Part shown: in pieces, positions 6,442 through 23,153 of the stretch
Numbering within the stretch: the first letter of the stretch is position 1
How the letters are laid out: every line of letters begins with the position of its first letter
Source of the DNA: a candidate division WOR-3 bacterium
GTDB taxonomy: Bacteria > Hydrothermota > Hydrothermia > Hydrothermales > JAJRUZ01
Length of the DNA stretch: 25,739 nt
Direction: 5' to 3'
Assembly (NCBI GenBank): GCA_965649145.1
Contig: CBFGJR010000190.1
Span: 1 to 25,739, forward strand
Notes under the pieces: generated by a model
What the model was told of the DNA's origin: nothing
What the model saw: the letters and a program-made list of their open reading frames with translations, nothing else
Database searches by the model: none
Translations under genes and position numbers: made by a program

Positions 6442-7656
6442 TTACTCTATAATATCTGTAATAACACCTGCTCCTACCGTTCTTCCACCCTCTCTAATAG
6501 CAAACCTCAACTCCTTTTCCATAGCAACAGGATACATGAGTTCAACCTCAAGATTCACATGGTCTCCAGGCATTACCATTTCCCTTCCCTCCGGAAGTTT
6601 GATTGAACCAGTAACATCTGTTGTTCTGAAATAAAACTGTGGCTTATATCCTGTAAAGAAAGGTGTATGTCTTCCGCCTTCTTCCTTTGTAAGGACATAA
6701 ACCTGTGCTCTGAATTTTGTATGAGGTGTGATTGAACCTGGTTTTGCAAGAACCATTCCCCTCTCAACTTCATCCTTTCCTATACCTCTTAAAAGTACTC
6801 CTACATTATCACCTGCTCTCGCCTCATCAAGAATCTTTCTAAACATTTCAACAGAAGTAGCCACTGTTTTTCTTGTAGGACCAAAACCAACAATCTCTAT
6901 CTCTTCACCCGGCTTTAAAATACCCCTTTCAACTCTACCTGTTACAACTGTTCCTCTCCCTGTAATTGAAAATACATCCTCGATTGCCATTAAAAAGGGT
7001 CTATCAATTTCTCTAACTGGATCAGGAATATAATTGTCCATTGCATCAAGTAATTCCCATATTTTTCCACAGTGTTCACATTCTCTCTTTCCACACCCGC
7101 ACTTCAAAGCATTTAAAGCACTCCCCTTTATTACTGGAACCTGATCCCCTGGAAATTCATACTTTCTCAAAAGATCTCTAACCTCTTCCTCAACAAGATC
7201 AACTATCTCAGGGTCATCAACTGCATCAACTTTGTTTATATATACAACTATATAAGGCACATTTACCTGCCTTGCTAAAAGAACATGCTCTCTTGTCTGA
7301 GGCATCACTGAATCCACAGCTGAAACCACAAGGATTGAGCCATCCATTTGAGCAGCACCTGTTATCATATTTTTAATATAATCATGGTGTCCCGGACAGT
7401 CAATGTGTGCATAATGCCTTTTCTCTGATTCATATTCTACATGGGCAAGGTTAACTGTCAGAATTTTTGTCTCGTCCCTTCTGAAAAGCTTTGCATCAGC
7501 TTTCGCTACCTGATCGTAATCCTGTTCCTGAGCAAGACCATATTTTGCAAGAACTTTTGTAATAGCAGCTGTAAGAGTCGTTTTACCATGGTCAATATGA
7601 CCTATGGTTCCTACATTAACATGAGTCTTTTTTCTTTCAAACTTGGGTTTACTCAT
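6442..7656 (-). CDS. tuf: Elongation factor Tu
   Basis: [53 protein letters not shown]. Confidence 0.99.
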
Positions 7657-7667
7657 TTTTTAAAAAA

Positions 7668-7720
7668 TTTTTGGATGGGAATAGAACCCACTTTGGGGTA
7701 TATTATAAAATCCCCAAAAA
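7668..7720 (-). promoter_or_regulatory. Structured tuf leader: T-loop hairpin (7675-7691) with alternative acceptor-like and upstream hairpin pairings, plus an embedded TATAAT box (7702-7707)
   Basis: Minus strand reads TTTTTGG GGATTTTATAATATACCCCAAA GTGGG TTCTATT CCCAT CCAAAAA TTTTTT. The pairings are read directly from the sequence; function is inferred. Confidence 0.6.
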
Positions 7721-7739
7721 TGAAAATTAAAATAATATT

Positions 7740-9788
7740 TTAATATAAAAATTCTTTTTTTTCAAGTTTTAAAGGTCTAAATGCTTTAACTTTCATCCAC
7801 AAACCTGCTCTGCCCTTAGTATGAGACCTTAAAGCTGTAACATACCCAAAGGTATTTTTTAAGGGCATCTCAGCAATTACCTTTATCCAGTCTGAGTTCT
7901 CTAACATCCCCTTTTCCAGTATAGTGGCTTCCCTCTGCATTAAATCCTGAATAACATTTCCCAAATATTCCTGAGGAACCGTAATTTCCACATAGGAATA
8001 GGGCTCAAGTAAAATAGGTTCCGCACTTTTTATCACTTCCCTACCCGCTTCATGAATGGTTAATCTTAAGCCAAGAGGGGTTATTTTTTCAATATTATAA
8101 ACTTTTTTCAAATTCATTCTCACATTCATCATTGGATAACCCGCTATAATTCCAAAATCAAGAACTTCTTTCATTGAACTCATAGCAATCTCTCTTAATT
8201 CCTCAGAAAAATTTATACTACTATCTATAACTATCTCATTTCTCATAGCCTCCATTATAGGTAAAACTTCAAGTTGAACTTTTCCATACTGGTCTTCCCC
8301 TCCTATATTTTTTTTCACCTCCTTTACAAGTTCCGCTCTCTTTAATATACTCTCTCTATAATGTACCTGGGGTTTTAATGCTCTGAATTCTAATTTATAG
8401 TCCCTCTTCAATCTATCGAGAATGATCTCAAGATGCAGTTCACCCATTCCTGATATTATTATCTGACCTGACTCCTCATCTATTTTTAAACTGAAAGTGG
8501 GGTCCTCTTCAACCATCCATTTTAATCTTTCCTCAATTTTTTTCAAATCTTTGGCTGAAACAGGTTCTATTGCCTGTGAAACAACAGGTTCAGGAAAAAG
8601 CATCTCTTCGTATAATACTGGATGTTCAGAAGAACACAAAGTATCTCCTGTCCTTACATCCTTTGGCCCAACTATCCCAACTATTTCTCCACAAAGGGCT
8701 TCCTTTATTGCATTCCGTCTATTAGCATGAAGTCTGTATAACCTCTGAACTCTTATAAGTTCTTTTGTTCTTGGATTATAGATTTTTGAATTCTGGGTAA
8801 TTTTTCCTGAATATATTCTCAAATAGCAAAGTTTTCCCATATCTTCAAAGATTTGAACCTTAAATACAACTCCACTGAAATGATCCTCAGGTGAAGGATA
8901 TCTTGAAATTTCCTTACGGGTTAAAGGGTCAATTCCTCTAATTTCTCCCCTATCTATCGGAGAAGGTAAATATAGACATATCGCATCTATTAAAGGCTGA
9001 ATACCTTTATTTCTTAATGCAGAACCTATTAAGAGAGGCAAAAATCTTTTTCCAAACACACCTTTTCTTATAGCATTATTAATTTTAACTGGATCAGGAA
9101 TTCCTTTTTCATAATAATCCTCTGCAATACTTTCGTCAATTTCCGAAAGTATTATAATCATATCCTCATAAAATTTCTTTGCTTCTTCAGGCATCTCATC
9201 TATCTCATAAACTGAGAATTGAGTTCCTAATTCATCTTTATCCCATAAAATTTTTTTATAATCAACAAAATGGTATACACCTAAAAAAAAAGATTCAATT
9301 CCAACTGGCCATTCAAGTAAAAGAGGCTTTATATTAAATTTCTTTTCTATCTGATCCAGAACTCTTAAATGATTCGCACCCTGTCTATCCATTTTATTAA
9401 TAAAGGCAATTCTTGGAACATTAAACTTTTCAGCCTGTCTCCATATTGTTTCTGACTGGGGTTCAACACCTTCCACAGCAGAAAAAATTATAACAAGACC
9501 ATCAAGAATTCTCAAAGACCTTTCAACTTCCGCGGTAAAATCCACATGACCTGGAGTATCAACTATATGTATTAAATAATCCTTCCACTCACAAAAAGTA
9601 GCAGCTGCCTGGATTGTTATACCCCTTTCTTTTTCCTGTCTCATATAATCCATTGTCGCTGTCCCTTCATCTACTTCACCCATCCTATGTATCCTTTGAG
9701 TATAAAAAAGAATTCGTTCTGTTGTTGTAGTTTTCCCGGCATCTATGTGGGCAGCAAAACCAATATTCCTCAATTTTGTTAAATCCAT
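7740..9788 (-). CDS. fusA: Elongation factor G family protein in the str operon, with a strongly diverged domain IV
   Basis: AHIDAGKTTTTERIL, ERGITI, DTPGHVDF, NKMD, SGMGELHL; located between rpsG and tuf. Confidence 0.92.
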   Translation of the reverse strand: MDLTKLRNIGFAAHIDAGKTTTTERILFYTQRIHRMGEVDEGTATMDYMRQEKERGITIQAAATFCEWKDYLIHIVDTPGHVDFTAEVERSLRILDGLVIIFSAVEGVEPQSETIWRQAEKFNVPRIAFINKMDRQGANHLRVLDQIEKKFNIKPLLLEWPVGIESFFLGVYHFVDYKKILWDKDELGTQFSVYEIDEMPEEAKKFYEDMIIILSEIDESIAEDYYEKGIPDPVKINNAIRKGVFGKRFLPLLIGSALRNKGIQPLIDAICLYLPSPIDRGEIRGIDPLTRKEISRYPSPEDHFSGVVFKVQIFEDMGKLCYLRIYSGKITQNSKIYNPRTKELIRVQRLYRLHANRRNAIKEALCGEIVGIVGPKDVRTGDTLCSSEHPVLYEEMLFPEPVVSQAIEPVSAKDLKKIEERLKWMVEEDPTFSLKIDEESGQIIISGMGELHLEIILDRLKRDYKLEFRALKPQVHYRESILKRAELVKEVKKNIGGEDQYGKVQLEVLPIMEAMRNEIVIDSSINFSEELREIAMSSMKEVLDFGIIAGYPMMNVRMNLKKVYNIEKITPLGLRLTIHEAGREVIKSAEPILLEPYSYVEITVPQEYLGNVIQDLMQREATILEKGMLENSDWIKVIAEMPLKNTFGYVTALRSHTKGRAGLWMKVKAFRPLKLEKKEFLY

Positions 9789-9870
9789 AGGTTTAATAAT
9801 TTATCTTAGAAGGATTTTAATATAAAATTATTTTCCTCTGATTCCTTACCTCTACTCCCATTTCCAAAAT

Positions 9871-10733: not shown

Positions 10734-10766
10734 ATAAGATGGGGATTAGAACCCAATTTATCTTAT
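10734..10766 (-). promoter_or_regulatory. T-loop hairpin in the rpsL leader
   Basis: ATAAGAT-AAATT-GGG TTCTAAT CCC-C-ATCTTAT; ATAAGAT/ATCTTAT is a perfect 7-bp pair. Confidence 0.6.
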
Positions 10767-10768
10767 TA

Positions 10769-10797
10769 ATTATAATCTCAAAAATTAAAAAATTCAA
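10769..10797 (-). promoter_or_regulatory. Sigma70-type promoter of the str/S10 operon
   Basis: TTGAAT (10797-10792), 17 nt spacer, TATAAT (10774-10769). Confidence 0.75.
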
Positions 10798-10895
10798 ACT
10801 GCTCAAAAATATACAACTTTTAAAATCAAAAAGTTCAAATTCCTGAAAGTAAAAGAAAATAAGAAGCTTGAAAAGATACTTTTGAAAATAAATGT

Positions 10896-17099: not shown

Positions 17100-17621
17100 T
17101 TGTATTTTATAAAAAGGGAGGAGTGGTTAAAAAAGGGTCTTACCGGTAGAATAAATAAGGTTTTAAAACATCCCTTCTATGTTATACATCACACAGCAAC
17201 ATTTCAGACGGAATATAAAGGAAATATAAACTATTTAGACAGGATGCATAAAAAAAGGGGATTTTTATTAATAGGTTATCACTTTATAATAGGGGTTGAT
17301 GGTAAAATTTTTGAGGGAAGGAAGATAGGAGAAGAGGGTGCTCATGTCAAAAGGTTCAATGATTCAATCGGTGTTGCGCTTATTGGAAATTTTGAAGAAG
17401 AAAATATTAAAAAGGAACAACTTGAATCACTTTTAAAACTCATGTTTTTTTTAAATAATAACTTACTTATTAACAGATTTACCTTTCATTTTCTTTTAAA
17501 TGAAAATACCTTATGTGGAAGATGGATTTATGGAAAAATAATAAAAAACAAAAATAAAAAATTTTTTAAATTTCCAGAGGATTTATTTTATAATTTATTG
17601 TGGGTTCAAACCCCTGAATAA
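17100..17621 (+). CDS. N-acetylmuramoyl-L-alanine amidase, Amidase_2/PGRP/T7-lysozyme type
   Basis: VIHHTA, IGYHFIIGVDGKIFEGR, GAHV, SIGVALIGNF, and later His (FHF) and Cys (TLCG) as candidate Zn ligands. TTG start is uncertain. Confidence 0.85.
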   Translation: MYFIKREEWLKKGLTGRINKVLKHPFYVIHHTATFQTEYKGNINYLDRMHKKRGFLLIGYHFIIGVDGKIFEGRKIGEEGAHVKRFNDSIGVALIGNFEEENIKKEQLESLLKLMFFLNNNLLINRFTFHFLLNENTLCGRWIYGKIIKNKNKKFFKFPEDLFYNLLWVQTPE

Positions 17622-21351: not shown

Positions 21352-23073
21352 TTATTCAGAAACAAGAAATTTGAATGTCCCTTCAGATGAACCCTTGTAT
21401 CTCAAGAAGTATACACCAGATTTCAAATTCTTAAACACAACCTCATTATTTCCAGAATTAACAAAAAGAGCCCTGGTATCAAGCTTCCTTCCGTTCTTAT
21501 CATAAAGTTCAAAAACCATTTTCCCATTGAAAGGTGAAATAAATCTCACTGTTCCATTTTTATAAATATTACCCACAAAACTGAGCCCCTTTCCTGTAAC
21601 AAAAGATTTTGAACCTTCCTCAACACCCATAAGAGGATAATAACCTGTGAGAATATAAGTCTGATCTATAGCGCCTAACCTGTATATACCATAATGAATA
21701 TCATAACCAGCCATTGCTCCATCCCATCCCCTTACAACATTAAAGAGAAGCCAAACATTAGAGCCTCCAAATACATGCTTTACCGTATGAACCTGATGCT
21801 CTATCTTGTCATCAGTAGGTTGATTAACCTCATCCCTTGTAATATTTATTGGCGCACTCCATGTCGCTCCTCCATCTGTTGAATACTTCACATAAATATC
21901 TGTCCAACCATACCTTGAACCATTCACATAATCAAAAGTATGATAATCAACATAGGTAACATAAAAAACATTATGAACATGGTCTATCGTTAATTCACAG
22001 TTCACAAACTGAATGTCCTCATCAGGGTCAATGACCGTATATGTCGCTGTTGGAGTCACAAGATATAAACCATTACCCGATACAAAAGTATCCGCTGTTC
22101 CAAAAATTATTGGATTAGTAAACAAACAGGTTGTTGAAATAAGAGCAACAGGTGTTGATGCATCTAAAAGCGCAAAATCCCAGTAGTTTGTCCACCAGAA
22201 TGCATCAACAATATGCGTTGAACCATCATAACCAAAAGTAAATGTATCAATAGGTATTTGTATATTAAGACCTATTCTTTGCCAGCTTACTCCATCATCA
22301 TATGAGACAAAAACAGAATCAGGTAAAACAAGGGCTGCATAAGTTCCATTAAGATAATCCATATTCCAAACTTCACCAGGATGACCAGGTATCACAGTTG
22401 CGGGAGGGTCTGGGTTAACAAACCCAAATTTCCACCACCATTGGGAGAAATAGTTATTATCAGCTCCTATCAACCAGTTCACATAGTTTGCAGGGTCATT
22501 TGAACCATGTGCAAAACTCTGAAAACCAACAAAAGGAGTAGTTTGATAATAATACTTTAAAATATTTCCCTGACCAAGGTCACCATTTGAAGGAACAGTT
22601 GCTATTGAAGCACCATAACCAGGAGAAACATTTGCATAACTCGCTATAAATGTATCACAGTCACCCAACCATGGACCAACCTGTGGATATCTACCGCCTC
22701 CATCATCATTATAAGGCCATACCCTATTCCATGTGGTACCACCATCTTTTGTAAATGTAAGAGCAAGCCATCCTGAACCTGGATAATTGGGATTATCAGA
22801 TAATCTTCTATATGTGAAAAATACACAGGATTGGTCGGGTGATGTATTTATAGGCTTTTCAGCAGTGTAAAGGGTTGAATACTGATTTGGCATTGTATCA
22901 ACATAGCTGATAGTCAATGTGGTGTAGGTGGGAGGAGACGCCAGATAGTAATCAAGGGTGCTTACAGCATCCTCATCTATAATCATATGAGTTCTTGCAG
23001 CAGGATTTATATAACCTGCAAGGAGGAATGTGGTTAAAAACATTCCTCCTAACATTTTTTTGAGGTAACTCAT
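21352..23073 (-). CDS. Secreted Asp-box/BNR (sialidase-like propeller) protein with a T9SS type-A-like C-terminal sorting domain
   Basis: Signal-peptide-like N-terminus; three Asp-boxes (TKDGGTTW, SYDDGVSW, STDGGATW); tail GVEE...ELYDKNGRKL...LKSGVYFLRY...KFLV. Confidence 0.7.
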   Translation of the reverse strand: MSYLKKMLGGMFLTTFLLAGYINPAARTHMIIDEDAVSTLDYYLASPPTYTTLTISYVDTMPNQYSTLYTAEKPINTSPDQSCVFFTYRRLSDNPNYPGSGWLALTFTKDGGTTWNRVWPYNDDGGGRYPQVGPWLGDCDTFIASYANVSPGYGASIATVPSNGDLGQGNILKYYYQTTPFVGFQSFAHGSNDPANYVNWLIGADNNYFSQWWWKFGFVNPDPPATVIPGHPGEVWNMDYLNGTYAALVLPDSVFVSYDDGVSWQRIGLNIQIPIDTFTFGYDGSTHIVDAFWWTNYWDFALLDASTPVALISTTCLFTNPIIFGTADTFVSGNGLYLVTPTATYTVIDPDEDIQFVNCELTIDHVHNVFYVTYVDYHTFDYVNGSRYGWTDIYVKYSTDGGATWSAPINITRDEVNQPTDDKIEHQVHTVKHVFGGSNVWLLFNVVRGWDGAMAGYDIHYGIYRLGAIDQTYILTGYYPLMGVEEGSKSFVTGKGLSFVGNIYKNGTVRFISPFNGKMVFELYDKNGRKLDTRALFVNSGNNEVVFKNLKSGVYFLRYKGSSEGTFKFLVSE

Positions 23074-23092: not shown

Positions 23093-23153
23093 AGGGAATT
23101 GAACCCTTTTTATTTTATGCTTAATTATAATCAATCATTCATTAATTCTTCAA
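23093..23153 (-). promoter_or_regulatory. Promoter plus T-loop hairpin upstream of the 573-aa gene
   Basis: TTGAAG (23153-23148), 18 nt spacer, TATAAT (23129-23124); AGGG TTCAATT CCCT (23107-23093); SD AAGGAGG. Confidence 0.6.

Follow-up and report, generated by a model that had tools for sequence, protein, structure and literature searches.

The window, a stretch of 25,739 nucleotides, is contig C190 of a 1.78-Mb metagenome-assembled genome with a G+C content of approximately 33%. Its minus strand carries rpsL, rpsG, fusA, tuf, and rpsJ in this order. The upstream cistron of the str operon, fusA (7740..9788; EF-G of 682 aa with Pfam EF-G domains), ends with a stop codon at 7742-7740, and tuf (6442..7656; EF-Tu of 404 aa with the Pfam GTP_EFTU, D2, and D3 domains) starts with an ATG at 7656-7654. 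EF-Tu typically ranks with the most abundant proteins of bacterial cells. The tuf gene was found to be single-copy, with one tblastn match across the assembly, and its product is 94% identical to the EF-Tu of a Candidatus Hydrothermales bacterium. The encoded protein (6442-7656, minus strand) also has a divergent and longer switch-I region and a cysteine-rich insert that is zinc-knuckle-like in appearance.

The fusA-tuf spacer has 83 nt and holds all the features listed in the earlier note, each of which was found in place and with the right letters when checked against the sequence. In the direction of transcription on the minus strand, these are TTTTTGG (7720-7714), TTTGGGG (7718-7712), TATAAT (7706-7701), CCCCAAA (7698-7692), a T-arm-like hairpin GTGGG-TTCTATT-CCCAT (7691-7675), CCAAAAA (7674-7668), and a run of six T (7667-7662). 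The hairpin contains a 13-nt core, GGG-TTCTATT-CCC (7689-7677), and TATAAT lies 12 nt 5' of the core GG. The spacer from hairpin to ATG, CCAAAAATTTTTTAAAAA (7657..7674, minus strand), is pure A/U past its first two C's and without a Shine-Dalgarno (SD) sequence; a GGAG-type SD is absent from the tuf leader. An intrinsic terminator between fusA and tuf was considered and rejected, since no terminator-like site was found in 7300-8100 and CCAAAAA parts the T-arm stem from the T6 run.

The earlier note had proposed that this leader toggles between two folds. In fold B, TTTTTGG would pair with CCAAAAA and stack on the 5-bp hairpin stem as an acceptor/T-arm minihelix, and in fold A, TTTGGGG would pair with CCCCAAA; EF-Tu binding or cleavage by RNase P or RNase Z would then autoregulate tuf or process the fusA-tuf transcript.

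Conservation of the tuf hairpin among relatives

The fusA-tuf junction was compared with those of 40 relatives. The family is represented by nine members, namely six genomes from two genera (this one included) and three metagenome contigs, the only relatives that a metagenome scan added. The core GG-TTCNANN-CCC was kept 21-25 nt 5' of the tuf ATG in all nine, and its flanks diverged. In the other five family genomes, the spacer is 79-92 nt long, has no SD, and carries GGTTCNANNCCC 21-24 nt 5' of the ATG; these 12 letters are the sole invariant internal block of the spacer among the six family genomes. The three metagenome relatives, whose EF-G C-termini are 61-69% identical, have the same core 24-25 nt 5' of the ATG. 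At 5 bp, the stem of the tuf copy in this genome is among the longest of the element described below, and the tuf orthologues do not maintain that length. One metagenome relative (L142:1290-1350) has a GAGGTG and an ATG that open an upstream ORF of 15 codons across the T-loop core, ending at a TAA one base 5' of the tuf ATG; this ORF is missing in the other relatives and is probably due to chance.

In the eleven other families of the class, tuf is either separated from fusA by a 25-40 nt spacer with GGAGG or preceded by a different gene, again with GGAGG, and the T-loop motif was absent from the 22 tuf leaders of other families. At the level of sequence, this comparison shows that the tuf copy is conserved across a bacterial family and that its arrival at tuf coincided with the loss of the ancestral SD. 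The part of the earlier note that read the hairpin as a copy of a tRNA T-loop was borne out.

The resemblance to tRNA raises the question, also posed in the earlier note, of whether a functionless tRNA gene has decayed between fusA and tuf. The T-arm does resemble those of the genome's own tRNAs, e.g., GTGGGTTCAAATCCCAC. However, ARAGORN gave no match at its normal or a lowered threshold, the sole match appearing at 70% of the threshold, and no Rfam tRNA match was obtained up to an E value of 10, with nothing near gathering scores in 7400-8000. None of the relatives has a tRNA close to tuf, the 12 core letters do not vary between the two genera and are surrounded by scrambled flanks, and more than 100 other copies occur in leaders. 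A decayed tRNA gene was thus rejected as extremely improbable. A second tuf locus, or gene conversion from a tRNA-tuf operon, was also rejected, as tuf is single-copy here and the relatives have no tRNA near it.

A T-loop element in leaders across the genome

The pattern GGTTCNANNCC has 218 matches in the genome, of which 46 are in tRNA or tmRNA genes and 172 elsewhere; approximately 16 would be expected by chance, as estimated from base composition. More than half of the non-tRNA copies (106 of 172) lie 15-40 nt 5' of an ORF start, counting ORFs of 80 aa or more, with a sharp peak at 19-25 nt and a mode of 21 nt. The position was re-tested with 622 genes that have near-unambiguous starts and were picked regardless of the motif. 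In these genes, the first loop T fell almost only at -27 to -37 (mode, -30), and the motif was essentially absent elsewhere within 120 nt on either side of the start. The motif is strictly sense-strand. The tuf copy fits this pattern as GGTTCTATTCC at 7688-7678 of the minus strand (GG-TTCNANN-CC in the sense direction), with a G-C third pair at 7689/7677, and its first loop T (7686) is located at -30 relative to the A of the ATG (7656), which is the genome-wide mode.

The commonest loop of the element, TTCAAAT, is also the commonest loop in the genome's own tRNAs, which are encoded by G+C-rich genes. Each of the six family genomes contains 44-100 exact copies of the 11-mer GGTTCAAATCC, compared with 14-21 per genome in the sister family and 1-16 in ten other families; the counts outside the family approximate the contribution of tRNA genes alone (about 20 in the tRNA list of this genome). 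These comparisons show the tuf hairpin, as far as sequence can, to be a copy of a lineage-specific leader element of the Candidatus Hydrothermales family, to which this hot-spring bacterium belongs. No description of such a T-loop or tRNA-mimic leader motif was found in the literature, and the element is apparently undescribed. It is neither a tRNA nor a tRNA remnant.

Further copies in the window illustrate the range of settings. One copy, GGG-TTCTAAT-CCC (10742..10754, minus strand), is located 21 nt 5' of the rpsL ATG (10720) and 15 nt after a TATAAT (10774-10769). It was kept in 6/6 family genomes, with G-C, A-T, T-A, or C.A as the third pair, and was absent in four sister-family genomes; the str operon of the family consequently has two copies, before rpsL and before tuf. 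A promoter TTGAAT-17-TATAAT (10769-10800, minus strand) is conserved across the family 5' of the rpsL copy. The rpsL gene of the sister family has GTTGACAAAT, a long leader, and a GGGGTG SD. Neither a T-loop core nor a clear SD is present in the 82-nt rpsG-fusA spacer (9789-9870, minus strand), whose AAATCCTTC is similar to the 3' half of the element alone. On the plus strand, GGG-TTCAAAC-CCC (17602..17614) lies 27 nt 5' of the ATG (17641) of a lactate/malate dehydrogenase gene, in a leader with an SD. A minus-strand copy, GGG-TTCAATT-CCC (23094..23106), lies 21 nt 5' of an unannotated ORF of 573 aa (ATG at 23073), inside a 57-nt spacer that follows a co-directional ORF. Elsewhere in the genome, contig C194 (approximately 7080-7340, plus strand) has two copies 199 nt apart with identical surroundings of 65 nt, which is a local tandem duplication including a leader.

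Covariation and the pairing potential of the flanks were examined after copies with real tRNA genes (25 in the raw sample) had been removed. The third pair, next to GG/CC, covaries (G-C 33, A-T 31, A.C 12, A.A 10, and G.T 5; z = 6.4) and is unpaired in 31 of 106 copies, and the next two stem positions showed no covariation in the tRNA-free copies. This leaves a 13-nt core with a stem of 3 bp as the element. As G.T was avoided as strongly as A.C at the covarying pair, the pairing cannot tell RNA from DNA. The hairpins were predicted to be marginal or unfolded at 70 C, and the 3-bp stem to be unfolded.

These results bear directly on the proposed two-fold switch. Fold A (7692..7718, minus strand), which places the TATAAT box inside a 13-nt loop, was kept only in this genome (G000), G001, and G004, the three closest species, with one swap from T-A to G-C; G005 and the metagenome relatives have a CCCC..GGGG hairpin at this place. 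The helix of fold B was 43% paired across the six tuf orthologues, no pair in them showed a compensatory change, and its two G-C pairs are unique to this genome. Fold A was thus present in 3/9 and fold B in 1/9 relatives, and the conservation of both pairings that the earlier note had looked to was not observed. The predicted energies of fold A and fold B, each combined with the T-arm, were -14.5 and -8.5 kcal/mol at 37 C and -3.8 and +0.7 kcal/mol at 70 C, so that the two folds differ by 6 kcal/mol at 37 C and are not balanced. The 96-nt region folded no better than its shuffles (z = -1.2).

The acceptor-type helix fared no better among the other copies of the element. In 21 of 105 copies, the 7 nt after the T stem had a perfect 7-bp complement within 70 nt upstream, compared with 22.1 for flank-swapped copies, i.e., in approximately 21% by chance; in DNA this rich in A/T, such a pairing costs nothing. 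Pairing in the element family stops after the third pair, and no acceptor helix follows. RNase P, RNase Z, and EF-Tu all require an acceptor helix, and minihelices of this kind are substrates of the CCA enzyme as well. The same element also precedes at least 106 unrelated genes and is missing from the tuf leaders of the sister families, which argues against autoregulation of tuf by EF-Tu. What speaks for the minihelix is that helices of 7 and 5 bp can stack with a T6 run behind them, in this genome alone, and that ARAGORN threads a tRNA-like shape through the region, only at 70% of its normal threshold.

We consequently consider the switch very improbable. A tuf-specific minihelix switch is not supported, and the main result on that claim is negative: the A/U-rich acceptor pairing is not conserved, an outcome that the earlier note had itself named as a refutation, and fold B is a chance pairing. 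Fold A is, judged by its distribution, a separate clade-specific GC hairpin around a candidate promoter.

Promoters, start codons, and the SD context

Copies of the element are found both within operons (fusA-tuf and rpsD-rpoA) and before first genes (rpsL). In 16 of the 106 leader copies, the element begins no more than 5 nt from a co-directional stop codon. The rpsD-rpoA spacer on contig C261 (L145:1397-1435; rpsD encodes S4) is 33 nt long and consists of the last base of the stop codon, AGGTTCAACCCCT, and 20 nt, followed by the ATG. The spacer between trkH and ald, the alanine dehydrogenase gene (L145:4117-4155), has the same 33-nt layout. Both thus contain little beyond the T-loop core and a 20-nt spacer.

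Exact TATAAT boxes 6-18 nt upstream of the core were found for 27 of 105 copies, a 6.7-fold enrichment that places many copies near a predicted transcription start; about half of the copies are located just downstream of a -10-like box. The TATAAT that the earlier note had marked just upstream of the tuf hairpin matches this genome-wide pattern with its distance of 12 nt. A -10-like box was found for 30% (near background) of the 23 copies that lie within 20 nt after a co-directional stop, compared with 59% for the rest, and the median distance to the ATG was 22 nt in stop-adjacent and other copies alike. The spacing to the -10 box varies loosely over 6-18 nt and that to the ATG is tight; from sequence, the element is shown to be anchored more tightly to the start codon than to the -10 box.

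The TATAAT of the tuf leader (7701..7706, minus strand) was kept in G000, G001, G004, and G005. As a candidate internal tuf promoter, it has a weak -35 hexamer, TTAATT (3/6), and it failed the two-hexamer scan. A second promoter-like site, TTGAAA-17-TAAAAT (7737..7765, minus strand), has 10/12 consensus matches and overlaps the 3' end and stop codon of fusA. Its letters were kept in relatives, but the same letters encode the conserved C-terminus of EF-G. The consensus scan found six sites, compared with 3.0 expected. The leader may plausibly contain an internal tuf promoter.

Whether the element acts as DNA or as RNA was weighed against these data. As a DNA-level element, it would be bound, as an operator or close to promoters, by a DNA-binding protein or sigma factor specific to the family. 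The proximity of about half of the copies to a -10-like box is consistent with such a site, as is the finding that G.T is no better tolerated than A.C. However, covariation of a flanking pair is not expected of a protein half-site, the motif is strictly sense-strand and reproduces every invariant of an RNA tertiary motif, and the stop-adjacent copies keep their distance to the ATG without any -10 enrichment. We regard a DNA-level role as decidedly unlikely. The rpsD-rpoA and fusA-tuf pairs are co-transcribed in bacteria where this was studied. Together with the stop-adjacent copies and the tight distance to the ATG, this co-transcription leads us to read the element as a part of the mRNA that is tied to the start codon.

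Within the mRNA, the hairpin might mark a cut or protected site and give the downstream cistron a defined, stable 5' end, for instance if a tRNA-processing nuclease acts there or decay from the 5' end is blocked. The operon-internal copies that follow a stop codon directly would suit such a signal, as would the promoter-proximal copies near a predicted transcription start; in addition, real tRNAs punctuate tuf operons elsewhere, as in the tufB operon of E. coli. A protector at the 5' end should nevertheless hold a tight distance to the -10 box and a loose one to the ATG, the opposite of what was observed, and the stem is too short for known substrates of RNase P or RNase Z. A processing or stability signal is a rather doubtful alternative to a start-codon-anchored signal acting on the downstream cistron.

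The lack of an SD at tuf, correctly described in the earlier note, is not exceptional in this genome. SD-like words precede 27% of the element genes and 30% of the other reliable-start genes, and about 70% of the genes have no SD; an SD-less tuf is therefore ordinary here, though it is a change relative to the sister families. SD-less leaders with the element have nearly no G/C at -19 to -1 and A-rich tracts at -17 to -13 and -5 to -1, a pattern that the control genes did not show. The tuf spacer CCAAAAATTTTTTAAAAA, A-rich and G/C-free, is typical of them. Codon adaptation was the same in element genes (median, 0.722) and others (0.720; p = 0.7). With both the SD frequency and the codon adaptation equal, there was no sign of an expression effect in the element genes. 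In three family genomes, the 16S rRNA has a canonical 3' end (…GGATCACCTCCTTTCT) that lacks any complement to the T-loop; the assembly of G000 itself contains no 16S rRNA.

Candidate binding partners and comparison with known systems

The 3-bp stem cannot stand alone at approximately 70 C, and we therefore infer a T-loop-binding partner. The enzymes that act on the T-loop of tRNA are plausible candidates by analogy. No lineage-specific binding factor emerged from phyletic patterns: all 41 genomes have one copy of TruB, whether or not they carry the element, S1 is full-length and single-copy everywhere and does not track the element, TrmFO is single-copy in relatives with or without the element, and TrmI- and TrmA-type genes are present. 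The genome analysed here contains two full-length TrmFO genes and duplicate genes for tRNA-Ser(tga) and tRNA-Ser(gct) with different sequences (contigs C6, C196, C223, and C257). Contigs such as C6, which carries the second TrmFO, are probably from a second, related organism, and this fits the stated contamination of 7.6%.

If these enzymes are the partners, the hairpins might exist as programmed modification sites for TruB, TrmFO, and TrmI, and a modified leader would alter decoding or stability. The core agrees with the GUUCNANNC stem-loop consensus, and the genes for all three enzymes are present. E. coli TruB accepts 3-bp GUUCNANNC stem-loops in vitro, modifying them at 0.3 times the tRNA rate (PMC13492117), and GU-pseudoU-CG sites were observed in bacterial mRNAs (PMC13236023). 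However, the same enzymes are found in sister families without the element, and a modified untranslated loop has no known effect. Programmed modification is unlikely to be the reason for the element.

We favour the reading that the tuf hairpin is a copy of an RNA-level, start-codon-anchored T-loop leader signal bound by a candidate T-loop-binding factor, and we give it a probability of about 60%. The signal would be a 13-nt T-loop look-alike of two fixed G-C pairs, one covarying pair, and the loop UUCNANN, whose first U is placed approximately 30 nt 5' of the start codon in more than 100 genes and which is followed by a G/C-free A/U spacer. Recognized by its T-loop-binding partner, it would act in the mRNA on the downstream cistron, most likely in ribosome loading and otherwise in mRNA processing or stability. 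A far more specific version, for which the odds are low, is that a T-loop mimic approximately 20 nt 5' of the AUG, bound by a ribosome- or tRNA-handling factor, loads ribosomes on tuf, rpoA, and rpsL independently of an SD, having arisen in one thermophilic family and replaced the ancestral SD of tuf.

The single tuf of this family has traded a strong SD for a T-loop look-alike and an A/U spacer. The contribution of this locus is a single-copy essential gene in which the element took the place of the SD when the family arose, and operon-internally as in rpsD-rpoA. It offers a clean natural test case, as sister families keep the ancestral SD at the same junction. If the element does recruit ribosomes or tRNA enzymes to mRNA, tRNA mimicry would underlie a so far undescribed layer of gene expression in bacteria; if it has no measurable effect, it illustrates the ease with which a tRNA-like word of 13 nt spreads through leaders.

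The closest structural relative of the element is the tRNA T-arm (positions 49-65) with its T-loop motif. Both have a 7-nt loop with equivalents of U54, U55, C56, and A58, closed by pairs of the G53:C61 and G52:C62 types. In contrast to the T-arm, the element constrains three pairs instead of five, has no acceptor, D, or anticodon arm, and occupies a fixed position relative to the ATG in mRNA leaders; in addition, the tuf copy (TTCTATT) has a pyrimidine at the position of purine 57.

In E. coli, the thrU-tyrU-glyT-thrT-tufB operon carries complete, functional tRNAs that are excised by RNase P and RNase E. A tRNA-type structure is thus found immediately 5' of tuf in the same transcript in both cases, but the structure studied here is a 13-nt T-loop core only, follows fusA, and occurs in a genome with no second tuf. 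The thrS operator and T-box leaders are confined to a single gene or a small regulon, act as mimics or binders of the anticodon or the elbow, and have a known partner. They share with the element a tRNA-related structure in the 5' leader, which in their case is linked to expression control, and differ from it in that the element is genome-wide. Bacteroidota and related phyla use SD-independent, A/U-rich leaders, and ompA has a stabilizer hairpin at its 5' end. The likeness lies in an SD-poor genome, an unstructured A-rich spacer, and a hairpin close to the 5' end of many messages. Neither class is known for a conserved loop sequence or a T-loop, and the position of the element is set by the ATG, not by the 5' end.

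The GUUCNANNC sites of TRUB1/Pus4 and the GU-pseudoU-CG sites of mRNAs have the same consensus as the element and are likewise short mRNA stem-loops (PMC13492117; PMC13236023). Those sites are scattered, neither locked to start codons nor expanded in one lineage, whereas the element, known here from its sequence, is both.
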